Part shown: piece after piece, positions 1-45,743 of the stretch | Position numbering within the stretch: position 1 is the stretch's first letter | Layout of the letters: every line of letters starts with the position of its first letter | Assembly: GCA_013239625.1 (NCBI GenBank) | Contig: PNXV01003397.1 | Span: 1-46,617 of the forward strand | Length of the DNA: 46,617 nucleotides | Direction: 5' to 3' | Source of the DNA: Lama guanicoe | Taxonomy: Eukaryota | The notes under the pieces: generated by a model | The model's database searches: none | Told to the model about the DNA's origin: nothing | Seen by the model: only the letters and a program-made list of their open reading frames with translations | Position numbers and translations under genes: made by a program

Positions 1-620
1 GCAGGGGAGCAGAGGGCTGGGAGGGCAGGGGGCAGCCCCAGGGGTTCCAAGGAATAAGTTGAGCTTGTACAGATGAGCGGAGGGCTACGAGGGCAGAGGG
101 CAGCCCTGAGGGGCTCCAGGGAGCAGTTTGAGCTTGTGCAGGACAGCAGAGGGCTGGGAGGGCAGGGGGCAGCCCTGAGGGACTCCAGGGAGGAGGTTGA
201 GCTTGTGCAGGATAGCAGAGGCCTAGGAGGGCAGGAGGAAAGCCCCAGGGGCTCCAGGGAGCAATCAGAGTTATGACCTGTAGGCTGCGGGCAGGCAGGT
301 ACAGGACTGCCCTGAGGAGATCCAAGGAGCTGGTAGAGCTTGTATTGCTAAACAGGCGGCTAGGAGTGCAGGGGGCAGCCTAACTGGCTCCAGGAATAAA
401 GTAAAGCTTGTGCAAGTAGCAGAGGGCTGGGAAGGCAGGGAGCAGCCCCAGGGGCTCCAGGGAGCAGGTTGAGCTTCTGCAGGGGAGCAGAGGCCTAGGA
501 GGGCAGGGGGCAGCCCCAGAGGTTCCAGGGAGCAATCAGAGCTATCACCTGTAGGCTGGGGGCAGGCAGATACAGGACTCTGCCCTGAGGAATTCCAAGA
601 AGCTAGTAGAGCTTGTATTG
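1..620 (+). repeat. 3' end of switch (S-gamma) region of the IgG2b gene; degenerate ~68-bp G-rich repeats
   Basis: G-rich top strand with units like gagcaggttgagcttctgcaggggagcagagggctgggagggcagggggcagccccagg, same family as 22836-25170; lies upstream of CH1; contains AGCT motifs. Confidence 0.85.
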
Positions 621-1584
621 GTGAACAGGGGGATGGAAGGGCAGTAGGCAGCTTAAAGTAGTCAAGGAAGCCAGTTGTAATTGTGAGAATGAGCAAAGGG
701 TCCGCATGACAGCGGGACTCCCCTGTAACTAGTGGATTAATGCCCGGACCTAAGGTACAACCACATGAGGAGCTGAGCCAGGGTGACGGCTGTGGGGATG
801 CTCACAGGGGCCACGGATGCTCCTGGGACAAGAGTCTCAGAGGCTGCTAGTGAGCAGGGGGCTGAGGTCAGAGGACAGGGATCTGGGAACCACGAGCTGG
901 GGTGGGGTCAGGGGCCCCGGTTGGAGGGGGAAGTGAGCTGAGGGTCTCCAGCTGGAGGACCAGAAGAGGGACTGGAGCTCTCCGAGGCACAGACTCGGCA
1001 GCCTGGCTGAGGCCACAGGGATGAAAGGGGAGGGGCCAAGGAGGAGACCTGCAGGGATAGGGTCCAAGGGGGCCAGGGTCCATAGGGGCCATGGGCCAGG
1101 GCCCAGGTGCTCTGACTGCAGAGCTGACCCAGAAGACACGGGCCCGGAGGACAAAGAACAGGACAGGCAAGGGGCCACAAGCAGGCTTCTGTGTGGTGGA
1201 GGCCCACCAAGCCAAGGAGAGGCCTGCTCACCTAGGGCAGGGCCGGGCTAGGGCAGCAGGACGGTGAGCTCAGGGGACCAGCGGATGCTGCCCGGGAGCA
1301 CGCAGCACTGGTAAGGACTCAGACACAGGGCTGAGTCAGGCCAGGCACCTGCAGGAGGTTAGGGACCTGGGGGGCTGTCACCCAGGTGATCACCCAGCTC
1401 TGACCCACAGCTGCAGAGGCACAAGGCCCCAGGTGGTGAGGGCCCTGCCGGCCAGCTGGTTTGCAGACATTCTGGAAGCACATGGGCGCTGGGCTCAGGG
1501 GTGCCCAGACCTGGACTCGTGACACCCTGCCCGGACCCTCCCAGGGGTGAAGCCCTGGTGGTCACACGGCCTACATTCTTGCAG

Positions 1585-1877
1585 CCTCCACCAAGGCCCC
1601 ATCGGTCTATCCTCTGACTGCTTGATGCGGGGACACGCCTGGCTCCACAGTGGCCTTCGGCTGCCTGGTCTGGGGCTACATCCCTGAGCCGGTGAGGTGA
1701 CTTGGAACTCAGGTGCCGTGTCCAACGGCATCCACACCTTCCCATCTATTCTCATGTCCTTGGGGCTCTACTCCCTCAGCAGCTTGGTAACCATGCCCGC
1801 CAGCAGCTCAACTGGCAAGACCTTCATCTGCAACATAGCCCACCTGGCCAGCAGCACCAAGGTGGACAAGCGTGTGG
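1585..1877 (+). pseudogene. IGHG2B: IgG2b CH1 pseudo-exon (skipped in heavy-chain-only antibody)
   Basis: ttgcag acceptor then (A)[15 protein letters not shown] at 1623-1625 where paralogues have AGA; 1-bp deletion at ~1696 (gtgaggtg vs gtgacggtg); 293 bp vs 294 bp in paralogues; donor is G|ATAAGT instead of G|GTAAGT. Confidence 0.95.
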
Positions 1878-2192
1878 ATAAGTGGACAGGCCTCAGGGAG
1901 GGCGTCCACTCCCAGACAGGACCGAGGTCAGCCTTCCTCCCGGCTCGAACCACATGCCAGTATGGCGACCTCTGTCCAGGGTATCAGAGGAGGAGCGGTC
2001 TCCTCGCCTGGAGGCCTCCCAGGCTATGGGAGGGGACCTCTGGGTGTTTCTATCAGGTCCAAGGTGGGCACAGGCTGCACAACGCTACCGCACATAGCTG
2101 GTGCTGGACCTGCCAAAATCTGTCCCTGCCCTATGCCCGCCCCAACAGACCTGCCCCCTCACCCAGAAACCTCCTGTCTGCTTTCTTTGCAG

Positions 2193-2279
2193 AACCCAAG
2201 ACACCAAAACCACAACCACAACCACAACCACAACCACAACCCAATCCTACAACAGAATCCAAGTGTCCCAAATGTCCAG
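2193..2279 (+). CDS. IGHG2B: IgG2b long hinge exon, [29 protein letters not shown] (29 aa)
   Basis: ctttgcag acceptor, G|gtgagt donor, 87 bp; matches the known llama/alpaca IgG2b hinge. Confidence 0.95.
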
Positions 2280-2401
2280 GTGAGTCAGACAAGCCAACCA
2301 CCTTTTCAAGGGGGTGGCCACAGCCCTGGTATGCTGGGAATACATATGCCCTGGACAACGCTGGCCCAGGTGCTAACTGCCCACCTTGTCTTCCCTGCCA
2401 G

Positions 2402-2731
2402 CCCCTGAGCTCCTGGGAGGGCCCTCAGTCTTCATCTTCCCCCCGAAACCCAAGGACGTCCTCTCCATTTCTGGGAGGCCCGAGGTCACGTGCGTTGTGG
2501 TAGACGTGGGCCAGGAAGACCCCGAGGTCAGTTTCAACTGGTACATTGATGGCGCTGAGGTGCGAACGGCCAACACGAGGCCAAAAGAGGAACAGTTCAA
2601 CAGCACGTACCGCGTGGTCAGCGTCCTGCCCATCCAGCACCAGGACTGGCTGACGGGGAAGGAATTCAAGTGCAAGGTCAACAACAAAGCTCTCCCGGCC
2701 CCCATCGAGAAGACCATCTCCAAGGCCAAAG
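2402..2731 (+). CDS. IGHG2B: IgG2b CH2 exon ([18 protein letters not shown]...QFNSTY...ISKAK)
   Basis: 330-bp AG/GT-bounded exon; Ig C1-set Cys/Trp; N297-equivalent sequon NST. Confidence 0.96.
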
Positions 2732-2814
2732 GTGGGACGGACAACGGGCGCGGGAGGGTCCTGTGGGGCTGCTTGGAGCTACCATCATGCTCACAGACAC
2801 ACCTGTCCCCCCAG

Positions 2815-3144
2815 GGCAGACCACCCGGGAGGCAGGTGTACGCCCTGGCCCCACACCGGGAAGAGCTGGCCAAGGACACCGTGAGCGTAACCTGCCTGGT
2901 CAAAGGCTTCTACCCACCTGATATCAACGTTGAGTGGCAGAGGAACCGGCAGCCGGAGTCAGAGGGCACCTACGCCACCACGCCACCCCAGCTGGACAAC
3001 GACGGGACCTACTTCCTCTACAGCAAGCTCTCGGTGGGAAAGAACACGTGGCAGCAGGGAGAAACCTTCACCTGTGTGGTGATGCACGAGGCCCTGCACA
3101 ACCACTACACCCAGAAATCCATCACCCAGTCTTCGGGTAAATGA
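2815..3144 (+). CDS. IGHG2B: IgG2b CH3-secretory exon, with a net +1 frameshift near its 5' end as given
   Basis: [21 protein letters not shown]...[19 protein letters not shown]; 330 bp vs 329 bp in both paralogues; internal membrane donor G|GTAAAT after 3136. Confidence 0.85.
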
Positions 3145-3248
3145 GCTTCACCCCGGCACCCCAGCGAACCCCCCACCCCGAAGCTCCCAGGCTCCCGCGT
3201 GGAGGCCTGAGCCCCACCCCTGTGTACATACCTCCCAGGCCAGCATGA

Positions 3249-3254
3249 AATAAA
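3249..3254 (+). terminator. Secreted-form poly(A) signal of IgG2b
   Basis: AATAAA ~105 bp after the CH3 stop; same position in IgG1a. Confidence 0.85.
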
Positions 3255-4570
3255 ACACCCAGGGCCTCCCTGGGGCCCTGCAGCACTGTCACGGTTCTTT
3301 CCGAGCAGAGCTCCGGCGCCCGCCGGGCCTGCGGGAGGCGGGGGCAGCCCAGGCTCTGAGGACAACCTTGGTGCCATCAGGGGACTGGGGATGACCAGAG
3401 GCAAGGGATGGGGTCTGCCAGAGGCAGCAGCTCCCTAGGGTCCAGTGTCGAGCCAGCACCTGCTCAGGCTGGAGTGTGCAGAGGACACTGGTAGAGCCTC
3501 CCAGGGACCCTCACGGAAATGAATACATAGTTCTTCCCACCTCTGTCCAAGCCCAACTGTGGGACAGTGGCAGGTCCTTATCCCCGCAGTTCCCGACCCC
3601 GGGGCCTCAAAGGCCCACGTGCTGACACCCTGTCAACATGGGATCCACGCCAGGCCAGCAATGGGGGCACAGGCCTCCTGCTCGCAGGACGCACGGGGAT
3701 CAGGCCCCACATTCCCGCAGGCAAGGTTCTCGGGCCAGAACGGTACACTCGAGGGGACATTCACCTAGACCCATAGGAAACAAGCCTTCTCATGGAGCAC
3801 AACAGCCTGCACACCCCTCGTCCTCCTGCATACTCACGCACACTCATTTCCTGTGCAACTGCACAAAGCGCTGAACCACAAAAGTGCACACAGGCCAGCC
3901 TTGCTCACTGGGTCCTCAACGGGGTACCCGCCCGGGGCCAGACCGGAGCCTGCAGCCGGGTCTCATGAACCCTCTGTGGACAACAGCTTGGTCCCCACTC
4001 CTCAAAGCCCCAGCAGCACAGACCACACTCTGACCACACTGGTCAGCTCAGACCCCCACCCCTCCTCTCCCCAGAACACCTGCACCCCCTCCTCAACACA
4101 CAGAGACCCAACACCCCACTGGTCCCTAGCACGCCGACCCCACCCCCTTGGGCACACAAGGACACCCCAAGGTTGCCTCCGCCCTTCCCTGCAGTAGGAC
4201 CCACCACAGCCCTGCTCTGCAGACCCTGCCTTCTAGGCCTGGCCTCCAGTGGGAGGGAAGGCAGGGGTCAGGGCACCCTCCCCGCAGAGGACCCCATGAA
4301 AGGCACAGCAGAGGAGAGGATAGGGGCCCCCACTGACCAGGCCGAGATCTGGGCCCAAGGAGTCCGGCCAAGACTGAGGCCCAAGCTGGAGGAATGGGGG
4401 ACACGAGGTCGCTGCCCAGGGACTGACCTAAGGGAACCATTGATCCAGCCCCCCAGGGGGATCCTAGTGCCCCACCCGCCCTGTCACAGAGGGACCCACC
4501 CCAGGCGCCACTGACCCTGCCCTGGCACGTGACGGGCAGCCACAGAGCTGAACACCCCCTCCCTGTCCAG

Positions 4571-4704
4571 AGCCACTCCTGGAGGAGGAGAGCTGTGCCG
4601 AGGCCCAGAGCGGGGAGCTGGACGGGCTGTGGACCACCATCTCCATCTTCATCACCCTCTTCCTGCTCAGCGTGTGCTACAGCGCCACAGTGACCCTCTT
4701 CAAG
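4571..4704 (+). CDS. IGHG2B: IgG2b membrane exon M1 ([45 protein letters not shown])
   Basis: ccag acceptor, AAG|gtgggc donor; canonical IgG transmembrane segment. Confidence 0.95.
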
Positions 4705-5052
4705 GTGGGCGGGCCAGGCCAGCGGTGCCTGCTGTCCCCACACGGTGCCCGCACAGTCCGCCTTCCCTGTCCCCTTCCTGTCCCCTCACAGTCCCGTCAC
4801 TGTCTCCTCACTCTCCCCTCTTGTCCTCTCTGTCCACTGTCTGTCCTCCTCTGTCTCTCCAGTCCATTCTATTCTCTCACTGTCCCTCTATGTCCTGGTC
4901 GGGACCTCGCTGTCCGCGGCTGTGCCCATGTAGTCCTCGCGCCACCCCACCTGAGCACACTTGCGGCCGGCAGTCCCAGGGCTGGGAGGCCAGGTCCCTG
5001 GGGGAAGCTGGCATGGGGGCCCCGGCTGTGCTCACACCCGCCGTCCCTGCAG

Positions 5053-5136
5053 GTGAAGTGGATCTTCTCCTCGGTGTTGGAGCTGAAGCAGACGATCGTC
5101 CCAGACTACAGAAACATGATCGGGCAGGGGGCCTAG
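5053..5136 (+). CDS. IGHG2B: IgG2b membrane exon M2, cytoplasmic tail [27 protein letters not shown]
   Basis: ctgcag acceptor; contains the IgG tail tyrosine motif DYRNM. Confidence 0.95.
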
Positions 5137-6140
5137 CGTGTCCTCTGGGGGTGTCCACGGCCACCACAGGCCCCAGAGGTACCCCGTTCATCACTCCGAG
5201 CTGCTCAGCCACTACTCCGCCCGCTGCCCTGCCAGTTCTGAGCTCTCGGCCATGCTCACCCGCACCTCCATCCTCCGACCTCGCGGCCACCACCGACCAC
5301 ACCCTGCACATTGCTCACGTTCAGGGGCCAGCTGGGCAGCAGGTGCTACCACCAACCTGAGCTTAGGGGTCTGCCTGTCCTCACCGGGAGTGCCCGGGGC
5401 ACCCTCAGGTTCCCTTGGATGAGCAGGAGGCTGGCATCCCGGGGCAGTGGGCAGGGATAGCTCTGTGGACACCATCAGATTGGTCATCAAGCAGGGTCCC
5501 CAAGGGGAGGTGCCTGTGTCAGATCCTTGGTGGGAACATATGCAGCCCTGGCCAACGTCTCGCAGCAGGGAAGCTTCTGGATGTGCCACCAACGGTCAGC
5601 CAAGTACTCAGCTCTGAGAAGGGCCTGGGCCCATGGCCCCTACAGGAGCCAGGCCTGCCAGGAACGGCAGTGAGGTCTCCCCACTCCAGCTTCCCAGAGA
5701 CGGAACTGGTGACCGGGTCCCCCAGGGGCAGGACACAGCCTCGCTGGACACAGCAAGAGGGACACTGGCACAACAGGGCAGTGGCCGCAGCCAGCCTGTC
5801 CCTTGGCCAGCGGCCTGAGTCACCTTCAGCAGGAGCTCCCCTGCACCGGGGGGTGGGGTGAGAGGCGACCCCGGGAGGAGGGAGCCCGACACCCCGGCGT
5901 CCCGGCCCGAGACCCCTGGGCCTCTCCTGTCTTGTCCCTGGATGGGGAGGGGCAGGCCCCACTGCCGGGTGGTGGCGGGGGAGAGGGGGCGCGCTACAGC
6001 CAGAGGTCACGCCAGGCCTGGCTTGGGGAGCTGTGCATCCTTTCTAAACGTCTGGAGCCCATGAACTTTCTGCGCTGTTTCTCTTTGGTTTGGGTTTTTG
6101 TTGCGAGACTCTGGCTTCTCATATTTTCGGTTCTCTAGAC

Positions 6141-6146
6141 AATAAA
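6141..6146 (+). terminator. Probable membrane-form poly(A) signal of IgG2b
   Basis: AATAAA ~1 kb after the M2 stop, preceded by T-rich sequence. Confidence 0.7.
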
Positions 6147-7588
6147 GCATCCTTTACCATTCCATAGCTCCCTGGCAGTCGCTCTGTGTTGCGGCCCCTC
6201 CCCTGGGGACTCCACAGCCTGGCCGCCCGCCACACCCTCCCAGCCCCAGGCCTCAGCTCTCCCCCCACCACACCCATCCCTGGGGTTCCCTGGGGGCGCG
6301 GAGTCAGCAGCAAGTCCCAGGGGTCGGACGCCTGGTCAGCACGGCTGCTGTAACACGCACCGCAGTCGGGTTGGAACCACAGAAATGATTGTCTCCCGTC
6401 CTGGAGCAGCACGTCCCAGCTCGAGGAGCGTGAAGGCCACTGTGCCCACCGGCTGCCAAGGCTGCAGGGACGCAGTCAGGACTCGGTCCTCCGGGGAGGC
6501 CAGACCCTGAGCTCCAGGCCCTCCTGGTGGCTCCATCTCAAAGGAACAGTCTCAGGTCCCGGGCTGTAGGAGACACAGCACTCCCCAGAGGGCAGACACA
6601 GGATCCACAGCTGTCTGCCCTTCGCAGGAAATGCTCCAGGAAACGGAGGCCAGTGCCTGGTCAGGGCTGGCTCTGCTGGGCGGTCCAGGCCAGCGCTACA
6701 GGAGAGCTCAGTCATCCACGGGACGCGGCCCTGGGCGGCTGGACATTGTCCAAGTGTCTGTGTGAGCCTTTCAGTGTGTCAGGGAAGAGGGGGCGAAATC
6801 AACGTGCCGAGTCTGTGCCTCCACGGCCCCAGGGGAGGCCAGCAGGACAGGCTCCTGGAGGGGAGCTGGGACCAGCACTGAGTGGAAAGGGCCATTCCAG
6901 CTTCCTGTGGGCACAGACAGACAGACAGCCAGAGGAAGACAGAGAACTTCATGCAGGAAAGGGACAGCTCGCTCCAGTGGGCTCTGCACCAGAGACGGTG
7001 AGGCCATGGGGCGGGCAGCCGGGTCCAGGGGCATCGCCGGCCCTCAGGGACCCTGCCAGGCGTGAGGACACTGGGCACCCTCTGCCTCCAGGGTGCTCCG
7101 GAAGCCATCCTGGGGGTCTCCCCCACTCGCCATTTCCCTCACACGGAACACCTAACCAACAAGCTGAACCTGCCTATGGTCCCTGCAGCATGCCCAGCCC
7201 CAGGCCCTGCCCCTCACCTCCATCCCCTGGAGCCCGGATCTGCCTCCAGCCACACATTCCCACGGGGACACCAGGACGCTCGATGCCGGGCTGGCCCCGC
7301 GGGTCCTTGAGGAGCACCAGTCCCAGAACAGCTGCCCCCCACCAGGCCTGAGGGCCCCGTCCTGACCCCGGGGCAACACCAGGCCACAGCGCGTCCCCCA
7401 TGCACAGCCCCTCCTGGGACCCTGGAAGCGAAGTGGCCGACGCCTTCCCTTGAGCCCCTGTGTCAGCACCGGTGCGAGCCTGAGCTCAGCTTTCTGCTGC
7501 TCCTGACCCCTAGGGGCGCTGCCCCGGGCAATAGCTCCGACACACTCCTGTCAGTGTCTCACCTATCCGACCCGCACCCCCATCCACA

Positions 7589-7592
<4 letters not shown>

Positions 7593-7620
<28 letters not shown>
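7593..7620. repeat. (CA)n microsatellite
   Basis: ~14 AC units. Confidence 0.95.
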
Positions 7621-7623
<3 letters not shown>

Positions 7624-7729
7624 GGGCTGCCACCCCACTGCGCTCCTGGGCCCCCACCAGGTCCCCCCTCCTCCCGCACTCCAAGGGGAACGCCTGCCGG
7701 TCTGAGCTTTGAAAACCTGGATTGCTGTC

Positions 7730-8340
7730 CGTGTGTGGTGTCCGTGGATGTGGAGAAAAGAAACCCTTGTGCGCTGCTGGTGAGAACATAAGATGGCATT
7801 ACCGTTGTGCAAAACGGTTTGGAAGCCCCTCAAAGACATTTCAGAAACAACTACCACACTTGCAGCAATCTCACTGCTGACAATAAACCCGAGCGAACAT
7901 ACAACAGGTCTTAAAGAGGCACTTGAACACCCACTTCACAGCAACTCCGTTGACAAGACCTACCACGAGGCACGAACTCGAGTGTCCTTCCGGGGATGGA
8001 CAGATGAGCACGATGTGGGCTGAGCGTACAATGGAACAGTACTGCCCCGAGAAAGAAGAACACTCTGACGTGTGTGACAGCACGGGGGCACCTGGAGGAC
8101 ATCGGAACGCGTACCGTGAGCCGCGGGCAAGACGGTGAATCGTGTGCGATTCCACTCGGGTGAGCGATTAGGAGTGGCCGCATTCACAGAAGGAGAAAAC
8201 ACAGAAGTGGTTGCAGCCGGGGGAGAACGGGGGGTTGTTGTTTACGGGCATAGGGTTTCACACGTAAAGATGGGAAGAGTTATGGAGACACGGGCGGTCG
8301 TGACTGCACTTTATGAATGCATTTGCTGTCCCCAAAACCC
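7730..8340 (+). mobile_element. Degenerate LINE-1 3' fragment
   Basis: ggatgtggagaaaagaaacccttgtgcgctgctggtgagaacataa... resembles the L1 ORF2 end/3'UTR. Confidence 0.65.
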
Positions 8341-8396
8341 GGAGAAAGGCTTAACATGGTACACTTTCTTGGGGGCAAGTCCTATTCTTTTAAACG

Positions 8397-8579
8397 GGAG
8401 AAATCTAACCCGTTAAATAAAATCTGAAAGCCTTCAGGAAGACCTGGAGCCCGTGTCTCTCCCTGTGGAAGAAACCGGTGGCAGCAGGAGAAATCTAACC
8501 CGTTAAATAAAATCTGAAAGCCTTCAGGAAGACCTGGGGCCCGTGTCTCTCCCTGTGGAAGAAACCGGTGGCAGCAGGA
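8397..8579 (+). repeat. 90-bp direct tandem duplication
   Basis: ggagaaatctaacccg...ggtggcagca at 8397 and 8487, one mismatch. Confidence 0.92.
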
Positions 8580-9429
8580 TGGAGCTGCACACCTGCCTGG
8601 CCCAGGGCTGGACCCCTGCGGAGGCCGGCGGGCGCCGGAGGAGCAGCTTCTCCACACTGACGGCGTGAGGGTGCCGGTCAGTGACAACGTGCACGGCTGT
8701 AGCAGAGCCCCCCAGCCAAGGGACTGCTCCTTCAGTTTGCTCTCCAACAGGTGTAAACTTCTCTTCTGGACAACCCTAACCTAGAGACACACGAAGGGAA
8801 GGGAACGCTAAGAAAGCTGCTCACGGCTTAGCTAACCTGACGTAGAACAAGAACAGCACAACCCACTGCTTGTCGGCCACCGTGCACCACGTTAAGCTTC
8901 CCGATTAAAAGGCAGCAATACACTTTGTGTTTCCACCTAATGCAGGGGAATTACCTCAGATGTAATATAAAAATGCCAACCCTCCTCCAAGAAAGGCTTC
9001 AACTCCCATTGCCCACCTTACGTACCTTCGGCTGATGTTCACGTCTCGTGTTGATGAATAACCTCCGCCTTGGGTGTCCTGCAGCTTATACGCTGAGGTA
9101 TGTAGCATCACCTCTAACACGTCCTTTGTCACACGGTGGGGGGGGGGGTGGACGGAACAGGTTGGTTATGAGAGGAGGAGACGGAGACGGTGGAGTAGAA
9201 GGACACAGAGCACATTCACATTACATCTACATGTGGACCACGTCTCACTGGAGAAAAATGGAGACTGGCAGAGAGACTCCTGTACAGCCAAGGCGCTGAA
9301 GAAAGGTCCACGAGGAGTCACGTAGGGAGGGAAGAGAGGTACTCGGTTTGGAACGCAGCCTCGGGGAGGGGACCCGGGACAGGGGGACACGTCATGGGCA
9401 CGCAGGTCTTCCCTGGGGAGTGGGCAGCG

Positions 9430-11260
9430 TGAGAGCGTTAGTAATATGAATGCTAACCAAGTTAGGGAAAAGGACACATGAAAACAGTTTGAACCTTTAC
9501 AGGGACCTGGAAAATATAAAAAGAGAACCACTCACCAGAGGGGTACGATGGCTAAAACTTAAAACACTGGAAGGGGCGAACAGGGCACTAGGTGGCACCG
9601 GAGACCCCACGCGACCTGGAAGACAGAACCATGGGAATTACCCAGTCAGAACTACAAAAGGAAAAACAACTTTTTTAACACTGAGAGCAGTTGACGGAAT
9701 CTATGGAACGACATCAACTGTCCTAACTTCGGCATGATCGGGGTCCCAGAAGCAGAAGGGAGAGAGAGAGAAGTTGAAAATGTACTTAGTGAAATTATGG
9801 CAAAAACTCACCAACCATGAAGAAAGAGAGACATTTCCAGGCGTAGGAATCACACAGTCCCAAACAAACACAACCCAGAGAGACCCACACCAAGACACGT
9901 CACAATTAAGTTGGCAAAAGTTAAGGATAAAGAGAGGATTCTGAAGACAGAAAGAGAACAACAGAGTCACGTACAAGGAGCTGCCACAAAGTTAACAGCT
10001 GATTTTTCTGCAGAAACTCTGCAGACCAGACGGGAGAGGCATGATCTATACAAATGCTGAATGCCAAAAACCTACAACCTAGGAGACGTCACCCCGCAAG
10101 ATTGTGGTTTAGACCTGAAGGAGAGACAAGAACTTCTCAGGCAAGCAGACCCTGGAGCAGTTCATCAACCCCCAGAGACATGTCAACGGTCTTCCTGGAG
10201 GGGAGCACACAGGCTATTGCAAGACGCAAGAATTTACAGCAAAGGCAAATCCCGCTAAAAGGCAAATTAAAGCCTGAGGTCATCAGCTAAATAAGCAAAA
10301 GATTAAAAGATACATTACGTAAAATTAACTGTGACTGCAGTAAACAGCAGTTCACAGGAAGAAGCAAAATATAACATCAAAAATAACGGGGGGCGTCACA
10401 GAGGGAACTAAAAAAAACAGACAGGTGAAAAGCTGCTCACATTCCTAATCGTTAGGGAAATGTAAATCAAACCCAAAAGGAGATGTCACCACAAAGACTG
10501 CAAGTAAGAAATATTGGTGAAGAGATGGGGTAGACGGAGCCCTGGTCGCTGGTCGCAGGAGTGCAAGCGGGTGCAGCCTCTGGGGAAAACAGCAAGGAGT
10601 ATCCTCAGAAAAACTAAAGAAACAACTATCACACGGTCCAGCAATTCCACTCCCGCCTGTACATCCGAAGGAAACAAAAACAAGAATTTGCAAAGATACA
10701 TGCACCCCAAGGTACATAGCAACCGTATGAACAAGAGTCAGCATACGGAAGCAACACAGGTGTCTGTCGGCAGAACAATGGATAAAGGTGGTACGATGGA
10801 TACACACGACGCAATAATGCTCAGCCGTGCAGAAGATTGATTTCCGCCGTTTGTGACATTGGTGGTTCTCTGCAGTAGGAGGCTTAGTGAAGTCAGTCAG
10901 ACAAAGGCAAATGCTCTAGGATATCACTTGTATGTGGAATCTAAACATTAATAGAAGTGAGTAAATATAACAACAGGAAAACAGACACACAGATAGACAG
11001 ATCAAATTAGTGGTTACCCGTGTGGAGAGGAGAGGGGGAAGGGGCTACGTAAGGACAGGGAATTAAGAAATACCAACTACTATGTATAAAATCCATAGGC
11101 TACTAGGACTATTGCACAGCACAGGGAGTATAGTCAGTGCTTCTAATAACTTCAAGTGGAATGTACTCTCTAAAAGTATTCAATCACCATTTTGTATGTT
11201 GTCCACCCGAAACTAATATAACTTTCTCAGTGAAGTGTATTTAACTTAAATCTATGTATA
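9430..11260 (+). mobile_element. Degenerate, internally deleted LINE-1 (ORF1 remnant joined to ORF2 end/3'UTR)
   Basis: 9870-9980 resembles L1 ORF1p (NPERPTPRHVTIKLAKVKDKERILK...); 10430-11230 resembles the L1 3' end; A-rich top strand. Confidence 0.75.
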
Positions 11261-11649
11261 TACACAAATTCATATCAAAATAAGGAACCATCTTCAAATT
11301 CCACCCACCACACTTGGGATCAATCATGCTTCTCTGTGGGGCGTGACTCCAAGACATTGGGCCAAGAAGAGTACTCAGGTTACGAAGATGGACATGGCTC
11401 CTGCCCCGAGACACACGAGGTCTTGGGACGCTGGTCCAGGCTGCGTTCTTCCTCTGAAACTACCTTGCGTTCCACAGGGCCCATTTGCTGTCCATGAGGC
11501 CTTTTCCACGTCAGGCAATGGCTGAGCCATGTGTGTACCCAAGGCCTTCCAGGCCGCTGTCCGTGGTCCTGACGCGGACTAGCAGGCTGTTTCAGCTACT
11601 GTCCATGGTCCTGCTTCTGCTGCTCTGCACGGAGTAATGATATTTTTAG

Positions 11650-12240
11650 ATTAAACAGACTTTGCCCTTTTAGGGTAGTTTCAGGCTAACAGAAAGTCCA
11701 CAGAGCTCCATAAATTCCAGTGCCCCACACATACACCCAGTTTCACCTGTTGTGAATATCTTGCTCCAGTGTGCTACATTTGTCAGAAGTGATGAACCAA
11801 GTTAATACATTATGATTAACTGAAGTCCATAGGCAACACCATGGCTCACTATTATCTGCACAATTCTATGAGTTTTGACAAATGCATGGTGTCATTTGCA
11901 TCCAGAGGCCCCGAGGCTGCTGTCCATGGAACTGCCTTGATCAGGTTCACTGTTCAGGCTGCTGCCCATCGGTCCACCATTTCAGCAACACACAGTACAA
12001 TTTCACTGCCTTGAAGACCCCCTGTACCTCACCGCCTCATTCCCCACCCCTCCCACACAAACTCCTGGCAGCCACTCGCCTTCTCATTGTCTCCATAGGT
12101 GAGCTCCTTCAAATACCGTGTAGTAGGAATCTCACAGCGAGCATAACCTTCTCCGGTTGGCCCCTTTCACTTAGCAATGCGCATTTTCATTTCCCCATGT
12201 CCTTTTGTGCCTCAATGGCTCATTTCTTCTTCGTTTTTAA
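11650..12240 (-). mobile_element. Antisense old LINE-1 3' fragment
   Basis: T-rich L1M-type 3'UTR motifs (gatgaaccaagttaatacattat, ctttcacttagcaatgcgcatt). Confidence 0.55.
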
Positions 12241-12254
12241 TGGTCGTTTCTTAC

Positions 12255-12368
12255 TTTGGGGGACTATGGGAGGGTAATTAGTTTTCCTTCATGGAGATAC
12301 TGGGGATTGAACCAAGGACCTCATGCATGCTAAGCACACGCTCTATCATTGATCAATACCCTCCCCCC
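12255..12368 (-). mobile_element. tRNA-derived SINE (camelid Vic-1-like)
   Basis: Reverse complement GGGGGAGGGTATTGATCAATGATAGAGCGTGTGCTTAGCATGCATGAGGTCCTTGGTTCAATCCCCAGTATCTCC: degenerate A box and GGTTCAATCCC B box. Confidence 0.75.
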
Positions 12369-12729
12369 ATTGCTTCTCCTACTAACTTCTTTTTTCAACA
12401 GCTTTGTTGAGATACAATTGATACACAAAATAAATGCATATATTCGAGGTACATCTGAGTTTGCACATATGCAGACACCTGTGAAACCATCGTCACTGTC
12501 AGGGTAGTCGATATATCCATTCCTCTAAAAGTTTCCTTGTGCTTTGGGTTTATTGGGATGGGGGAGCAGCACATGTATGTGAAGAGCCCTTATCACGAAA
12601 TCTACTCTCTTAACAAGTATCTGGGTGCACAATGCAGTGTTGTAAACCGTCAGCACAATGTTACACACGGAGCCTCGGAATAGATCTCATTCTGCATAAC
12701 TGAAAATTTATACCTATTGAATCACGGCA

Positions 12730-13135
12730 GAATCAAAGAGTATCACCACAAAAAATCAATGAAGCACAAAAGAAAGAAGCAAGAAGGAATAGAGGAACAA
12801 GTTCACTACAAGACAGGCAGAGAACTATTAAAAACAACAGTGATAATAGGCCTTTCCCTGCCACAATTACCTTAAATGTAAATGGATTACATTATCAGAG
12901 CAAAAGATATACAGTGGCTGAGTGGATAACAAGCAAGGCCCAGATCTGTGCCAACACAAGGCACTCACTTTAGGCTTAAGGACACATGTAGGCTGGTCAC
13001 GAAGGGATGGAAAAACGTACTCCATGGAAAAGGCAAACAAAAGGAAGCAAGGATGCGTACACTTGGACAAAATAGACTTGAAGGTAAAAACAGTCATAAG
13101 AGACCCAGAAGGATGCTATACAATGATGAAAAAAA
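12730..13135 (+). mobile_element. LINE-1 fragment covering the start of ORF2 (endonuclease)
   Basis: attaccttaaatgtaaatggatta...gtggctgagtggata = ITLNVNGL...VAEWI, the L1 EN N-terminus. Confidence 0.7.
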
Positions 13136-13139
13136 TCAG

Positions 13140-14100
13140 TTCTTCACAGACGGCTTCGTCCTTTTTATTCTGCAATCCTGTTCCTCTGCCTGGATGCATC
13201 CACTCACCTACTGAGGGACATCCTGTGCGCATCCAAGTTTGAATTAAGCTACGAATGAAGCATCTGTAGACATTTATAAACCATACACATCGCTGCACAG
13301 ATTTGGGGTGGACATGAGTTTTCAGCCCATTTGAACAGGTGAGTATCTAGGAATGCAGTTGCCGGGTTGTATGGCAAGATTAGGTTTAGATTCTGGAGAA
13401 ACTGCCGAGCTCTCCTGCAGACGGGCTCTTCCCGTTTGCACCCACCCGCAGCGGAGGAGGCCTCCTGCTGCCCCACACCCTCACCAGCGTCGGGAGGTGC
13501 CGGGTTTCGGTGTTGCTTCTGGACGTCCACCGTTCTAACAGCTGCGTGGTGGTCTTCCTTGTTTTCGCTTACAGCCTCCAACGACGTCGGATGTGGAGGA
13601 AACTTGTGCTTCCTTCTCTGCATCTGTGAGTCTTCTTAGGTGAGAGGTCTGTCCAGGGCTTTTAGTCACTTTTGACTGGGTCGTTTGTTTCCTTGTTGTG
13701 GACTTTTAACACTTCTCCGCATATTGCGGACACGAGTCCTTCATCAGATACGAGGTTTGCAAATGTGTGATTCTCCCAGTCCATGGCCTGCCTTTCATTC
13801 TCTCGACAGTGTCTTCCACAGGCAGGCATTTCCACTTCAGTTAAGTTCAGCTAGTGACTTCTTTTCCGTGGAATGCGCTTTTGGTGTTGTACCTACTGAC
13901 TCTTCGCCGAAGTCAAGGTCACCTAGATTCCCATAGTTCCCTTTTTTGCATTGAGGTCAATGACCCACTGTGAGTTAACTTCATGACCAGTGTGAGCATG
14001 CGCCTCAGCTCGTTTCCTGCTGGGATGCAGGTGCTCCACCACCACTTGGTGAAAAGAGCCCCTTCTCCATCAAGTTACCTTCACTCCAGTCGAGCCCTCA
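13140..14100 (-). mobile_element. Antisense LINE-1 ORF2 3' fragment
   Basis: L1 antisense motifs (catccactcacctactgagggacat, ccacaccctcaccagc, tcagatacgaggtttgcaaat). Confidence 0.65.
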
Positions 14101-15860: not shown

Positions 15861-17370
15861 GGACAGCAGACCTCAGCGGCAGGCAAATCTGTGAGCCCCC
15901 GGGAGTGGTTTAACACAAATTCTCTCCCGGGGCCGCAGCCTTCCATTGCTCCCTCACTCCTCTGGACCCCTCTCGCTCCCCACACCTTCCTCCAAGGGGA
16001 GCTGCGGGCTCCCGTGCCCATCAGCCGCCAACCACTGTGATAACAGCGTCAGCACCCAGGGAACGGAGGGAGCAAGGCCCAGCCAGCGCCCTGGCCCGTC
16101 GTTGGCTAACTCCGTCTGTGGCTCTTGCCCAGGGGCCGTCCTGCGTTTCCTCCTTCTGTAAACGCACAGCCTCCCCACACTGCTCAACAGCTCCATCCTC
16201 CAACCATAGACTCAGCTCCTCTCCCTGCTCCACTCCAGCACAGGGCGCACCCACCATGCTGCCATCACCACCCACCGAGCAGCCTGCCTGCCGTCCTGGT
16301 GGGTCTCAGCCCAGGGTGGTCTCTGCCGTGGGAGGTAGGGTGCAGCAGGAGTCAAGAAACCAGTCCCTACTCTGCCTCCGTCACACTCAGTGTGATGGGC
16401 CTGGGGGGCAGGCTTGGGTGTCACTGATGGCGCCCCAGTCATAAAACTCTGCTTGGACGGGGCACGGGGAGGGGCTTTGTGGTTAAAAGCTGCAGGCTCG
16501 GGGAGCTGAGAGGTCAGGGGTGTGGCCCAGCAGGAGCCCCAGGAGCTGCCCTCCCACCTGCACGGTTCAGACGGATGCCTCCAAGGAGACCGCTGGAGAA
16601 GGCAGTGATGGGGGAGCCGCTTGCGGACCCAGGTATGAGCTGAGCGTGGGGCCCCGAGCCCTGCACACCTCCCCGTGGTCCGTCTAAGCCACACAGCATG
16701 GACGCAAGGATTGTTTCGAGCCGCAGGCAATCAGAAAAGCAGGCACAAGGCAAACTCTCCGCCTCCTGCCTCCTACGAGGCAAAGCAGGGCGACACCTGG
16801 GGACACAGCAGACCCTTATCAGCACCTGCCAGGGCCTGCCCTGCAAGCCGGCCTCACTGCCTCTCCCGTCAGCCCGTGTACCCACCTTCCCCGCTACGCT
16901 GGCCAGAGACACAGAGTCCCTCTCCTTCGTCTTCACCCTTGGCTACGACTCAAGTCCTTTTGTCCGGGTCTGTCCACCCCGTGTCGACCCCCTGCCCCGT
17001 GCTCATCCGGGGCACCCTCTGTTCCTATATTCCAATCCCCCCGGGAGACGCTTGTTTCAGAAACCTGAGGTGGAAGGGGGAACTGGCCCCCTCTCCTACA
17101 AGAGCAAGCCTCTCCCGGACCTGGCAAGGGGCAAGCAAAGTCTGAGAGCCCTGGCAAAGAGGAGGGAGCGTGCACAGGGAGGTGTCCATCAGCCCTGCAG
17201 GAAGACAGCCAGGCAGCTTCCACCTCTAGCTACCTCCATCTGATCCCTGTCCAGCCAGTACTGGGAGTGCCAGGAGGCACTAGAGATCTGAGTTGAGGCA
17301 GGAGAGCAGAGTGAAATGTGGATCTGAGCTGGGAGGACCTGGGTGCACTGCAGATCTGTGCTGGAGGACC

Positions 17371-18699
17371 AGGGTGCACAGAAGATCTGAGCTGGCAGGA
17401 CCAGGATGCACGGGAGACCTGGGCTGGGAGGATGAGGGTGCACAGAAGATCTGAGCTGGCAGGACCAGGATGCACGGGAGACCTGGGCTGGGAGGATGAG
17501 GGTGCACAGAAGATCTGAGCTGGCAGGACCAGGATGCACGGGAGACCTGGGCTGGGAGGATGAGGGTGCACAGAAGATCTGAGCTGGCAGGACCAGGATG
17601 CACGGGAGACCTGGGCTGGGAGGATGAGGGTGCACAGAAGATCTGAGCTGGCAGGACCAGGATGCACGGGAGACCTGGGCTGGGAGGATGAGGGTGCACA
17701 GAAGATCTGAGCTGGCAGGACCAGGATGCACGGGAGACCTGGGCTGGGAGGATGAGGGTGCACAGAAGATCTGAGCTGGCAGGACCAGGATGCACGGGAG
17801 ACCTGGGCTGGGAGGATGAGGGTGCACAGAAGATCTGAGCTGGCAGGACCAGGATGCACGGGAGACCTGGGCTGGGAGGATGAGGGTGCACAGAAGATCT
17901 GAGCTGGCAGGACCAGGATGCACGGGAGACCTGGGCTGGGAGGATGAGGGTGCACAGAAGATCTGAGCTGGCAGGACCAGGATGCACGGGAGACCTGGGC
18001 TGGGAGGATGAGGGTGCACAGAAGATCTGAGCTGGCAGGACCAGGATGCACGGGAGACCTGGGCTGGGAGGATGAGGGTGCACAGAAGATCTGAGCTGGC
18101 AGGACCAGGATGCACGGGAGACCTGGGCTGGGAGGATGAGGGTGCACAGAAGATCTGAGCTGGCAGGACCAGGATGCACGGGAGACCTGGGCTGGGAGGA
18201 TGAGGGTGCACAGAAGATCTGAGCTGGCAGGACCAGGATGCACGGGAGACCTGGGCTGGGAGGATGAGGGTGCACAGAAGATCTGAGCTGGCAGGACCAG
18301 GATGCACGGGAGACCTGGGCTGGGAGGATGAGGGTGCACAGAAGATCTGAGCTGGCAGGACCAGGATGCACGGGAGACCTGGGCTGGGAGGATGAGGGTG
18401 CACAGAAGATCTGAGCTGGCAGGACCAGGATGCACGGGAGACCTGGGCTGGGAGGATGAGGGTGCACAGAAGATCTGAGCTGGCAGGACCAGGATGCACG
18501 GGAGACCTGGGCTGGGAGGATGAGGGTGCACAGAAGATCTGAGCTGGCAGGACCAGGATGCACGGGAGACCTGGGCTGGGAGGATGAGGGTGCACAGAAG
18601 ATCTGAGCTGGCAGGACCAGGATGCACGGGAGACCTGGGCTGGGAGGATGAGGGTGCACAGAAGATCTGAGCTGGCAGGACCGAGATGCACGGGAGACC
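17371..18699. repeat. 64-bp minisatellite, ~20-21 perfect copies
   Basis: Unit gggtgcacagaagatctgagctggcaggaccaggatgcacgggagacctgggctgggaggatga; lines 17401 and 18361 (960 bp = 15 x 64) identical. Confidence 0.97.
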
Positions 18700-20189
18700 A
18701 TCTACAGCAACCAGCCCAGGAAGCCGCCTGCTCCCCACACGGCAGACCTGCAGGAAGTGAGACCTCTACCTCCAGTGAAAGTCCAAGAAGCCGAGCAACC
18801 TGTAACAGCACCCCCATGCCCGGCAGGGGTGCGACCAGTAACCGACAGCGTCCATCATTTTGTCCCTGCGTCCACCTTAGGACCCACGGGAGAAAGCCGG
18901 ACGTGCCCCCAGCCATCACAGGGGCGCCTGCGTCCAGCCTCCCCAGGGGCGTCCAGCTTCCCCAGCCCACCGCCCCATCATGCACCCCAGAGCTCGCCCT
19001 TTTTCTATAAAGAACCTCCCTATACACAGAGACTATTTTAATCGATTAACAGAGTATTTATTATACACTATGCATGCATGTGTTAGAAACATATGTCACA
19101 GACGTGTGTATGTGTACAGTAACACTGAACAGTACATACACATAATAAAACCGCAAAGCTCTCCCGCGTCCCTGCCTGCCTGGAGGCTCTGCCAAGCCCG
19201 GTGGTGGGTGTGGACTCCCTGGCTGCACCAGCTCGGAATAATCAGGCTCTCCTTATCCTGTTAAAGCATTTTCAGCAACTTAGGAGACACCAGGTCTCGT
19301 GACAGTAGCTCACAGTCGCTGTTAAAAAACAGCCCCAAGTGCATCTTGGGACCTGGACACAAGCGGAGACGAAGGTGAAGGTGGCGGAGCGGGTCTGAGC
19401 AGGGGCGGTGATCCCCGGAGGAAGCGAGCAGAGCAGGGGTGGCGGGCGGTCCTGTGGGGCCCAGCAGAGCACCTGGGCTGGACTCCGCTCTGGGCAGGCC
19501 GGAAGGGGCACAGCACGCATGTCGCCCACCCAGCCCTTGTAGGACACGTGCCCGGGAAGCCCCTTCCCCACCCGCGGCACTTCTGAAGTGGGCACTACGT
19601 TATCTCCCAGGGACCCTGATGCTGCAGGCACAGAACCGCCCAGGGTGCTCACGGGGCTCGGAGTGAGCTGCGGCACTCCAAGACAGGAGAAGCCGAGGGT
19701 CCCCGTCCCCACTCTTGGGACACACACAGCGGTGGAGGGCCTGCATGCTCTTTCTCAGCCAGAGAGCCATCTTCCAGCCCCAGAGACCACCGTGAACTCT
19801 GCAGCACAGAAGACAGCTGCTGCTGGGGAAACAGCTTCCCTCTGACCTTGCGTGTCACACCGCCCTTCGGTCAGAGATGGGGGACAGGGATGGGGCCACG
19901 GATGGAGGGAGAGAAGAGGCTTGGACCCAGAGGAAGACAGCCGCCCACCCAAGAGGCCGTGCTGGCAGGCGGACAGGACAAAGCTGGGTTAGGTTGCAGC
20001 CTGTGCCCACCGCACTCACCAGAGGGGAGAGAGGTGACCACTGGCCCTGGGAGGACCGAGGGCTCGGGGGGAGGCCGGGTGCCCCAGGCAACAGCCAGCC
20101 AAGCGGGCAGCATCCCTGTGGGAGGTACGGAACAAGTGACCGCAGAGACTCCCACTCTGAGCCCGAGGTCCCAGGACACCACTCGCCCC

Positions 20190-20965: not shown

Positions 20966-21299
20966 CAGCCCTGGGGTTAACACAGGAGTCAGGGAGTGGA
21001 GCGGAACTAGGCTGAGGGCTCTGCGTTGACCCAGAGGGTCAGAGGCTGCCATGGGCCAGCACCAGGGACAAAGGTCAGGGAGGCTGAATGTAAGAGGTGG
21101 CAGAACACCTGGAGGTCAAGGAGGGCAGCCCCAGGCGCTCTAAAAACACATGGAGCTTGTGCACATGAGCAGAAGCCTGGGAGTGGACGGGGGCAAGAAG
21201 CTAACTTGGAGTTCAAGAGAAGTTGGAGCTTGTGTAAGTCAGAGGCCACTGAAGGGCAGGAGGGCAGTGGGACATTCCTTGAATTTCCAAGGATGCAAG

Positions 21300-24200: not shown

Positions 24201-25250
24201 GGAGCAGGTTGAGCTTCTGCAGGGGAGCAGAGGGCTGGGAAGGCAGGGGGCAGCCCCAGGAGCTCCAGGGAGCAGGTTGAGCTTCTGCAGGGGAGCAGAG
24301 GGCTGGGAAGGCAGGGGGCAGCCCCAGGAGCTCCAGGGAGCAGGTTGAGCTTCTGCAGGGGAGCAGAGGGCTGGGAAGGCAGGGGGCAGCCCCAGGAGCT
24401 CCAGGGAGCAGGTTGAGCTTCTGCAGGGGAGCAGAGGGCTGGGAAGGCAGGGGGCAGCCCCAGGAGCTCCAGGGAGCAGGTTGAGCTTCTGCAGGGGAGC
24501 AGAGGGCTGGGAAGGCAGGGGGCAGCCCCAGGAGCTCCAGGGAGCAGGTTGAGCTTCTGCAGGGGAGCAGAGGGCTGGGAAGGCAGGGGGCAGCCCCAGG
24601 AGCTCCAGGGAGCAGGTTGAGCTTCTGCAGGGGAGCAGAGGGCTGGGAAGGCAGGGGGCAGCCCCAGGAGCTCCAGGGAGCAGGTTGAGCTTCTGCAGGG
24701 GAGCAGAGGGCTGGGAAGGCAGGGGGCAGCCCCAGGAGCTCCAGGGAGCAGGTTGAGCTTCTGCAGGGGAGCAGAGGGCTGGGAAGGCAGGGGGCAGCCC
24801 CAGGAGCTCCAGGGAGCAGGTTGAGCTTCTGCAGGGGAGCAGAGGGCTGGGAAGGCAGGGGGCAGCCCCAGGAGCTCCAGGGAGCAGGTTGAGCTTCTGC
24901 AGGGGAGCAGAGGGCTGGGAAGGCAGGGGGCAGCCCCAGGAGCTCCAGGGAGCAGGTTGAGCTTCTGCAGGGGAGCAGAGGGCTGGGAAGGCAGGGGGCA
25001 GCCCCAGGAGCTCCAGGGAGCAGGTTGAGCTTCTGCAGGGGAGCAGAGGGCTGGGAAGGCAGGGGGCAGCCCCAGGAGCTCCAGGGAGCAGGTTGAGCTT
25101 CTGCAGGGGAGCAGAGGGCTGGGAAGGCAGGGGGCAGCCCCAGGGGCTCCAGGGCACAGGTTGAGCTTCTGCAGGGGAACAGAGGGCTGGGAAGTTAGGG
25201 CGCAGCCCCTGGGGATTCATTGTGCAATCAGTGCTGTCACCTGTAGGCTG
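21300..25250 (+). repeat. Switch region S-gamma of IgG1a: ~16 perfect 67-bp units (~21341-22428) and ~34 perfect 68-bp units (~22836-25144)
   Basis: G-rich non-template strand with AGCT AID hotspots; ORF starts recur every 67 bp; lines 22861 and 23881 (1020 bp = 15 x 68) identical. Confidence 0.93.
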
Positions 25251-26287: not shown

Positions 26288-26581
26288 CCTCCACCAAGGC
26301 CCCATCGGTCTATCCTCTGACTGCTAGATGCGGGGACACGCCTGGCTCCACAGTGGCCTTCGGCTGCCTGGTCTGGGGCTACATCCCTGAGCCGGTGACG
26401 GTGACGTGGAACTCGGACGCCCTGTCCAGCGGCGTCCACACCTTCCCATCAGTCTTCATGTCCTCGGGGCTCTACACCCTCAGCAGCTTGGTGACACTGC
26501 CCGCCAGCAGCTCGACCGGCAAGACCTTCATCTGCAACGTAGCCCACCCGGCCAGCAGCACCAAGGTGGACAAGCGTGTGG
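26288..26581 (+). CDS. IGHG1A: IgG1a CH1 exon, intact ([32 protein letters not shown]...KVDKRV)
   Basis: 294 bp, open frame, canonical donor G|GTAAGT; conventional H2L2 antibody. Confidence 0.96.
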
Positions 26582-26896
26582 GTAAGTGCACAGGCCTCAG
26601 GGAGGACATCCACTCCCACACAGGACCGAGGTCAGCCCTCCTCCCGGCTCGAACCACATGCCAGTATGGCGACCTCTGTCCAGGGTATCAGAGGAGGAGC
26701 GGTCTCCTCGCCTGGAGGCCTCCCAGGCTATGGGAGGGGACCTCTGGGTGTTTCTATCAGGTCCAAGGTGGGCACAGGCTGCACAACGCTACCGCACATA
26801 GCTGGTGCTGGACCTGCCAAAATCCGTCCCTGCCCTATGCCCGCCCCAACAGACCTGCCCCCTCACCCAGAAACCTCCTGTCTGCTTTCTTTGCAG

Positions 26897-26953
26897 AACT
26901 CAAGACACCCCAACCTCAATCCCAACCAGAATGCCGGTGTCCCAAATGTCCAG
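26897..26953 (+). CDS. IGHG1A: IgG1a hinge exon [19 protein letters not shown] (19 aa)
   Basis: 57-bp AG/GT-bounded exon; matches the camelid IgG1a hinge. Confidence 0.95.
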
Positions 26954-27077
26954 GTGAGTCAGACAAGCCACTCCCTCTTTAACAAAGAGGTGACCACAGC
27001 CCTGGCATGCTGGTAATACGTGTGCCCTGGAGAACACTGGCCCAGGTGCTAACAGCCCACCCTGTCTTCCCTGCCAG

Positions 27078-27407
27078 CCCCTGAGCTCCTGGGAGGGCCC
27101 TCAGTCTTCATCTTCCCCCCGAAACCCAAGGACGTCCTCTCCATTTCTGGGAGGCCCGAGGTCATGTGCGTTGTGGTAGACGTGGGCCAGGAAGACCCCG
27201 AGGTCAGTTTCAACTGGTACATTGCTGGCGCTGAGGTGCGAACGGCCAACACGAGGCCAAAAGAGGAACAGTTCAACAGCACGTACCGCGTGGTCAGCGT
27301 CCTGCCCATCCAGCACCAGGACTGGCTGACGGGGAAGGAATTCAAGTGCAAGGTCAACAATAAAGCTCTCCCAGCCCCCATCGAGAGGACCATCTCCAAG
27401 GCCAAAG
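27078..27407 (+). CDS. IGHG1A: IgG1a CH2 exon
   Basis: 330 bp; [18 protein letters not shown]...QFNSTY...ISKAK. Confidence 0.96.
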
Positions 27408-32263: not shown

Positions 32264-32298
<35 letters not shown>

Positions 32299-45089: not shown

Positions 45090-45383
45090 CCTCCACCAAG
45101 TCCCCATCAGTCTATCCTCTGACTGCTAGATGCAGGGACACGCCTGGCTCCACAGTGGCCTTCGGCTGCCTGGTCTGGGGCTACATCCCTGAGCCGGTGA
45201 TGGTGACCTGGAACTCAGGCGCCGTGTCCAGCGGCGTTCACACCTTCCCATCTGTTCTCATGTCCTCGGGGCTCTACTCCCTCAGCAGCTTGGTGACACT
45301 GCCCGCCAGCAGCTCGGCCGGCAAGACCTTCATCTGCAACGTAACCCACCCGGCCAGCAGCACCAAGGTGGACAAGCGTGTGG
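45090..45383 (+). pseudogene. IGHG2C: IgG2c CH1 exon: frame open but donor dead, so skipped in the HCAb
   Basis: 294 bp [20 protein letters not shown]...KVDKRV followed by G|ATAAGT. Confidence 0.93.
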
Positions 45384-45698
45384 ATAAGTGGACAGGCCAC
45401 AGGGAGGTCATCCACTCCCAGACAGGACCGAGGTCAGCCCACCTCCCAGCTCGAACCACATGCCAGGATGGTGACCTCTGCCCAGGGTGTCAGACGAGGA
45501 GCGGTCTCCTCGCCTGGAGGCCTCCCAGGCTATGTTAGGGGTCCTCTGGATTTTCCACCAGGTTCAAGGTGGGCACAGGCTGGACAACTCTAACCCACAT
45601 AACTGGTGCCGATCCGCACCTTCCACAACCTGTCCCTGACCTAAACTCCACCCAGGGCCATTTCCACCCACAGTAACCCCCATCTGCTCTCTCTGCAG

Positions 45699-45743
45699 CG
45701 CACCACAGCGAAGACCCCAGCTCCAAGTGTCCCAAATGCCCAG
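45699..45743 (+). CDS. IGHG2C: IgG2c short hinge exon AHHSEDPSSKCPKCP (15 aa)
   Basis: ctgcag acceptor, G|gtaagg donor; matches the llama/alpaca short-hinge HCAb. Confidence 0.95.

Follow-up and report, generated by a model that had tools for sequence, protein, structure and literature searches.

In the camelid HCAb genes the CH1 exon is skipped through a mutation of its splice donor, and an AT donor at the end of that exon corresponds to the G>A lesion described for IGHG2B and IGHG2C of llama and alpaca and for IGHG2 and IGHG3 of camels (PMC6812646, PMC9100996, PMC11659936, PMC11059136). Reviews give the +1 base as A in all HCAb genes, and according to PMC3149040 and PMC12591594 the HCAb genes descend from conventional genes. 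In the available portions of these six papers the shared mutation is stated, with no mapping of a shared block and no mention of transfer between paralogues. For the dromedary, PMC10756906 (available in part) proposes a second C-alpha gene whose donor has changed from G to A; the same lesion is invoked there for the loss of CH1, though in a different isotype and by way of duplication and a new mutation.

On the guanaco contig analysed here (46.6 kb; the window is this whole stretch of 46,617 nucleotides) lie three IGHG genes of a New World camelid, 2b, 1a and 2c. Those with the lesion are the HCAb genes of that literature, and the lesion is the same: the change from GT to AT that marks camelid HCAb IGHG genes was found in 2b and 2c and not in 1a or 1b. 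The CH1 donors read A-TAAG at 1878 (2b) and 45384 (2c) and G-TAAG at 26582 (1a), with G also in 1b. The genes and their CH1 and hinge exons are as follows.

1585-3140: gene 1 (IgG2b)
1585..1877, + strand: CH1 pseudo-exon of IgG2b, disrupted by a TGA at 1623 and by the loss of one base near 1696
1878..1885, + strand: mutated CH1 donor of 2b, ATAAGTGG, identical to 2c at 45384
2193..2279, + strand: long hinge exon of 2b, its 5' part 1a-like and its 3' end Ser-Lys as in 2c
26288-27815: gene 2 (IgG1a)
26288..26589, + strand: CH1 exon of gene 2 (IgG1a) with its GT donor intact
45090-46600: gene 3 (IgG2c)
45090..45391, + strand: CH1 pseudo-exon of gene 3 (IgG2c), frame still open, AT donor
45699..45743, + strand: short hinge exon of IgG2c, the label following the available part of PMC7760621

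In that part of PMC7760621 the short hinge belongs to IgG2c and the long hinge to IgG2a. The translated hinges of the window matched those of the alpaca proteins P0222 and P0321, the latter with one repeat fewer, in agreement with the subclass assignment, and in the alpaca gene model P0222 the V region is joined straight to the hinge. The CH1 pseudo-exon of 2c (45080-45538) keeps an open frame and both core cysteines, unlike that of 2b.

IGHC paralogues are known to undergo conversion, an ordinary process in such clusters, and it has reportedly been described among human and primate paralogues by Kawamura (1992) for IgA and by Calonga-Solis (2019) for IGHG. The guanaco genes likewise look like a patchwork of exchanges among tandem constant genes in which the hinges are most distinct; the difference is that the guanaco block includes a dead exon and a splice lesion that makes a two-chain antibody of a four-chain one. 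Among the papers that could be searched, none dealt with conversion between IGHG genes of camelids or mapped this block.

The comparison set comprised the window genes together with further copies in the genome and camel proteins. A second conventional IGHG gene, with a short hinge and a GT donor, lies on contig C10980 and is called 1b here, the labels 2b and 1a being those of the preliminary description. C9058 has one further copy each of 1a and 2c, in agreement with the window (6/1679 differences for 1a, 4/2210 for 2c). A truncated 2c-type orphan copy on C7219 and a processed pseudogene (the retrocopy) on C55223 completed the set. The gene list available from PMC6812646 for alpaca and llama is IGHG1A, 1B, 2B and 2C. 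As to gene order, 1a is followed directly by 2c both in the window and on C9058, and 1b stands alone on the 2.7-kb contig C10980; this arrangement possibly reflects copy-number variation or mis-assembly, and the available text of PMC11148044 mentions a duplicated IgG1 locus that is not the same in llama BACs as in alpaca cosmids.

A preliminary description had placed the splice mutation in a tract of about 1 kb (870-1935) shared by 2b and 2c within an otherwise IgG1a-like gene, and had proposed that the mutation arose once and was moved by gene conversion into the 2b lineage. The reading preferred here, at a probability of about 0.7, keeps the single origin of GT-to-AT and the subsequent germ-line gene conversion between IGHG paralogue lineages, and replaces the one 1-kb tract by a patchwork of events. 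It is supported because the grouping of 2b with 2c against 1a with 1b was recovered in the interval named beforehand, because two derived states are linked, and because the flanks of 2b are of gamma1 type. The two genes have in common a CH1/donor block of about 0.5 kb, and their switch regions, hinge introns and the 5' halves of CH2 belong to different paralogue lineages. From the common block, its tree, two derived bases and the differing backbones we infer conversion as the mechanism, its timing and the order of events.

The comparison of 2b, 2c and 1a gave 41 sites with 2b=2c against 36 with 2b=1a in 870-1934, which is no excess (p=0.65), and 24 against 143 in 1935-3140. A three-gene two-breakpoint permutation for a switch of topology gave p=0.0005, but this was rejected as evidence by itself, being mostly due to the long branch of 2c outside the tract, which lengthens from 0.04 within it to 0.2-0.39 beyond it. 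The motifs on which the preliminary description relied are real (ten motif pairs searched were found in place, and the CH1 pair tcagg..gtg/tcggac..ctg was seen in the alignment), although only 7 of their 13 substitutions are true splits and the other 6 are private to 1a. Once 1b was included, 26 of these 41 '2b=2c' sites proved to be 1a-private, and 15 separated (2b,2c) from (1a,1b); the objection that 1a-specific changes explain every shared base thus holds for those 26 and not for all. Distances alone are even, with all gene pairs 6.4-7.8% apart in 870-1934, 2b and 2c differing at 73/1047 (7.0%) and 2b and 1a at 82/1064 (7.7%).

With four genes, informative sites were counted in the order 2b2c/1a1b, 2b1a/1b2c and 2b1b/1a2c, and came to 15:5:2 in 870-1934 versus 5:11:4 downstream. 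The first count departs from one third (binomial p=0.0009), and the contrast of inside with outside (15:7 versus 5:15) gave a Fisher p of 0.007; a four-gene two-breakpoint permutation over 42 informative sites was not significant (p=0.089). The maximum-likelihood tree of 870-1934 grouped (2b,2c) against (1a,1b) with support of 98/98, and the AU test rejected (2b,1a) (p-AU 0.011) and (2b,1b) (0.007). Outside the tract (2b,1a) was the best grouping but a weak one (84/82 and 68/71), and (2b,2c) was not rejected there (AU test p 0.096 and 0.161) because informative sites are few. The anticipated switch of topology was seen, clear on the inside and weak on the outside.

The extent of the signal was smaller than proposed. 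Split at 1430, the tract gave 5:5:0 in 870-1430 and 10:0:2 in 1431-1934, which places the signal in about 0.5 kb, roughly 1424-1934; in the latter interval, picked after the data had been seen, the same tree was found with 99/96 and p-AU 0.009. When the orphan was included, the tree of 870-1430 became ((2c,orphan),(2b,(1a,1b))), in which the sister of 2c is the orphan and not 2b. No single run of significantly raised identity between 2b and 2c spans 870-1934, only 1424-1573 being significant, as is expected of an old tract that has decayed. A single tract from 2c covering 870-1935 was rejected.

The polarity of the shared bases was considered site by site. The A at donor +1 (1878) is derived, since the canonical donor is GT. 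The second firm case is a codon in CH1.

1718..1720, + strand: Val codon of 2b and 2c; the dromedary proteins P0147 and P0148 likewise have Val, whereas P0219 has Met and 1a, 1b and the retrocopy have Leu

Among matched non-camelid IgG proteins this position is Leu in 291/292 and Val in 0/292 (313 proteins were surveyed, 21 of them unmatched, and many are near-identical human Fabs), and Val is derived. At sites 1482 and 1515 the state of 2b and 2c is probably derived, since the 2c-type orphan has the base of 1a and 1b. Site 1751 is taken as ancestral in 2b and 2c and derived in 1a and 1b, Phe occurring there in 0/292 matched non-camelid proteins; site 1488 is probably derived in 1a and 1b too, and 1885 and 1915 weakly so, by read-through proteins of mixed mammal outgroups. 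For sites 1747 and 1750, both silent, no polarity was assigned. The 10 splits of 1431-1934 thus comprise two firmly and two probably derived in 2b and 2c, one firmly and three weakly derived in 1a and 1b, and two unpolarised; derived bases on both sides fit a root between (2b,2c) and (1a,1b). An apparent A at 1878 in the retrocopy was rejected as an alignment artefact, being the first base of the hinge.

That firmly derived shared states number only two leaves some room for GT-to-AT having arisen twice, once in each lineage, with the other common bases being ancestral or due to later conversion between HCAb genes. Later 2b-2c exchange is indeed visible at 1424-1573, selection for CH1 skipping could repeat the mutation, and CH1 distances show no preference for 2b with 2c: in CH1 alone, 2b differs from 2c at 20/293, from 1a at 21 and from 1b at 18, and a CH1 tree with the retrocopy (83/88) rejected no alternative, including (2b,1a) (p-AU 0.077). 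Two origins are nevertheless judged quite unlikely, for the identical base change would have to recur at the identical position, outside a CpG, when many other changes can break a donor, and in HCAb genes from both the Old World and the New World it is linked with a Leu-to-Val transversion, itself rare.

Outside the block, the single origin with transfer draws on the backbone of 2b, of which these parts are relevant.

1..875, + strand: switch-region 3' end and spacer of gene 1 (IgG2b), gamma1-type
2402..2731, + strand: CH2 of 2b, its 5' half gamma1-type (2402-2580 differs at 2/179 from 1a and 36/179 from 2c)
3145..3620, + strand: 3' flank of 2b resembling 2c and not 1a (6/476 from 2c on C9058; 35 and 28/476 from the two 1a copies)
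3620..13831, equal to 28295-38506, + strand: identical block of 10,212 bases with zero differences between the 2b and 1a 3' flanks

Upstream, 2b is of gamma1 type, which confirms the description for that part: 530-875 differs from 1a at 39/344 (11.3%) and from 1b at 33/313 (10.5%), and the region upstream of 2c aligns with it only in patches of 68-77%. To call the gene 'otherwise IgG1a-like' was too strong, given the 11.3% upstream, a hinge-CH2 intron nearer 1b (11/122) than 1a (16/122), and the 2c-like stretch at 3145-3620. Near-identity to 1a past 1935 was borne out for 1935-2191 and CH2 (5/329) and failed for the hinge (9/58), the next intron, CH3 (20/325; 2b is about equidistant there) and 3145-3620. 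Beyond 3620 the flanks are uninformative on likeness to 1a, because 2b, 1a and 2c are nearly or fully identical there (the 2c flank on C9058 shows 2 differences over 3500-10500), and the 10,212-base identity is due either to very recent homogenisation of this membrane-exon region or to a collapsed repeat in the assembly. The CH3 start of 2b (2815-2835) is frameshifted relative to 1a, 1b and 2c; since P0321, the 2b protein of alpaca, keeps its frame at this point, the shift is probably a sequencing or assembly error. In the hinge of 2b, 2259-2262 encodes Ser-Lys as in 2c, in place of the Cys and another residue of 1a, 1b and the camel long-hinge models, possibly a micro-conversion with loss of one hinge cysteine.

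The same backbone bears on the idea that 2b and 2c are simply sister genes, one HCAb gene having been duplicated, and that gamma1 sequence then overwrote 2b on both sides while selection spared CH1 and the donor. Homogenisation is common in the IGHG cluster, a young overwrite at 1935 halts 57 bases from the mutation, and 2b is also like 2c at the 3' end of the hinge and in 3145-3620. This history would require, however, that the switch-region end, the hinge with the introns before and after it, and CH2 had all been replaced, and these parts are of an old gamma1 type (9-13% from 1a and 1b) and not recent copies; moreover, CH2 is of gamma1 type in the long-hinge genes of camels already, and their hinge end is like that of 1a and not 2c. 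Sister genes are accordingly regarded as unlikely, and one origin followed by transfer is retained.

The edges of the shared region and several younger patches could be separated from the block itself.

876..2050 (2c 44398 to about 45550), + strand: gamma1-like interval of 2c in which the four genes are about equidistant; 3' end uncertain (2019-2112)
1424..1573 (2c 44929-45078), + strand: 2b=2c identity block upstream of CH1, young and without the splice mutation
1935..2191, + strand: homogenised intron block of 2b, 1a and 1b (2b/1a 1/257, 2b/1b 3/257; 2c 44-46/252)

At 1935 (break range 1916-1961) the mismatch between 2b and 1a falls from 82/1058 to 1/257, and the runs starting there were significant for all three pairs of 2b, 1a and 1b after correction for six pairs. 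The edge is made by a young homogenisation of 2b, 1a and 1b (0.4%), whose overwriting stops 57 bases from the splice mutation; the alternative named in the preliminary description, later homogenisation of 1a and 2b, is thus right for the 3' edge. Distances of 2c from the other genes are 5-10% within 876 to about 2050 and 18-40% outside, with homology to 2c starting at 876 and change-points in 2c distance at 2029-2084 (range 2019-2112). The 1935 edge and the jump in 2c distance near 2050 are two separate events, the second ending an older block, and the 870/876 edge is the point where 2c itself becomes gamma1-like. Conversion-like runs were significant in five of the six gene pairs after the same correction, the sixth giving 0.052. 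That at 1424-1573, with 12 polymorphic sites, had a permutation p of 0.0003 (0.0018 after correction), and a 1b=2c run at 1295-1410 gave p=0.0048, also corrected. In 1431-1584, 2b differs from 2c at 2/154 and either from the orphan at 8/154, so this 2b-2c exchange is younger than the orphan.

Two dromedary gene models include a CH1 pseudo-exon, and they represent both backbones. P0147 combines a long hinge, which the model reads out of frame, with a CH2 that differs from 2b and 1a at 5-6 residues and from 2c at 17; its Val 1718, Ile 1730 and Leu 1761 are as in 2b. P0148, which also has Val 1718, is of 2c type: it differs from 2c at 7 residues and from 2b and 1a at 20. All the camel proteins used here are automatic gene models in which the donor +1 base is invisible. 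In C. ferus, P0219 has Met at 1718, one transition from Val, and its CH1-hinge junction is at the normal place. The long-hinge models of camels have a gamma1-type CH2 and a hinge end like 1a, unlike 2c. Because the block occurs on both backbones in Old World camels, its sharing is likely older than the split of Old and New World camelids, if orthology holds. A further camelid CH1 read-through, P0001, has Ile 1730, Ile 1748 and Met 1792 in common with 2b alone, yet G at +1 and Leu 1718, a character conflict. It mixes 2b-like and 2c-like residues. It may lie near the source from which the block came before the mutation, or be one more mosaic, and may belong to a further IGHG gene or a pseudogene.

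The camel models also speak to whether the mosaic could be a chimera assembled from near-identical paralogues. The assembly is imperfect here, with 10,212 identical bases between two flanks, the frameshift at the CH3 start of 2b, 1b on a contig of 2.7 kb and an overlapping second 1a-2c copy on C9058. Yet 2b has 14 private bases in 1431-1934, and hence no copy of 2c reads was placed there; the second copies of 2c and 1a agree with the window; and the dromedary P0147 shows the same combination of Val 1718, Ile 1730, Leu 1761, long hinge and gamma1-type CH2. A chimera is therefore considered very improbable.

Under a single origin with transfer, events could have run as follows. An old exchange would first have made 876 to about 2050 alike across all IGHG genes. 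The mutated CH1 block would then have moved between a long-hinge gene and the 2c gene, the recipient becoming an HCAb gene that kept its own hinge and Fc, after which CH1 would have decayed, by a stop and a deletion in 2b, with the frame of 2c staying open. Younger overwrites (2b=2c at 1424-1573, 1b=2c at 1295-1410, and 2b=1a=1b from 1935) would finally have cut the trace of the transfer to about 0.5 kb. Sharing of the HCAb lesion between paralogues is real, old and fragmented, and probably came about by conversion.

The direction of the transfer, for which the preliminary description had 2c as donor, did not follow from its evidence, since 2c is unusually close to gamma1 over 876 to about 2050 and could itself be the recipient. 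Passage from 2c to 2b is nonetheless slightly favoured. Flow that way at least once is suggested by the Ser-Lys hinge end of 2b, like 2c where camel long-hinge models are like 1a, a matter of two substitutions only. The converse, with 2b as the donor gene, is held only a little less likely, because 2c contains the out-of-place 876-2050 block and because P0001 pairs a 2b-like CH1 with an intact donor. A clear role of 2c as recipient was dropped, as the 870-1430 tree fits both directions. An extension of the donor role of 2b, that the CH1-skipping allele is a portable cassette of gamma1-type origin exported to the old, divergent 2c lineage, is doubtful. If it were true, the cassette might perhaps also have entered a 1b-type gene and made the camel IgG3, which resembles 1b in hinge length and CH2; the HCAb subclasses would be polyphyletic in hinge and Fc and monophyletic at CH1 and the donor, and every transfer would make a conventional subclass light-chain-free in one step.

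A single origin with transfer would reconcile one common point mutation with a long-hinge HCAb whose Fc is nearer IgG1a than IgG2c, and would let HCAbs acquire several Fc backbones with no need for the mutation to recur. A caution follows for trees of whole or coding IGHG sequences, which would misdate the origin of HCAbs.

Other observations concern the surroundings of these genes. A search of the PDB returned only human and mouse-type CH1 among the best 60 of 7016 matches, and in a genome search with the upstream region of 1a none of the 19 candidates scored was an I-exon region belonging to 2b or 1b. Tandem arrays at 17261-18700 (64-base units) and 21100-25370 (67/68-base units, the switch region of 1a) have copies that look almost identical, possibly through expansion in the assembly. 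The orphan (C7219, about 49866-56000; L012/L013) keeps the upstream and switch regions and breaks off in CH1 at the window equivalent of 1714, short of the diagnostic bases, beyond which lies unrelated AT-rich DNA; its distance from 2c is 1-10% per 400-base bin. The retrocopy (C55223, 5911-8750; L014) originates from a sterile germline transcript, with the I-gamma exon spliced to CH1, and continues through a 1b-type hinge, CH2, CH3, M1 and M2 to a poly(A) tail, with 92-95% identity to the window exons. It is bounded on both sides by an 11-base repeat that resembles a target-site duplication.
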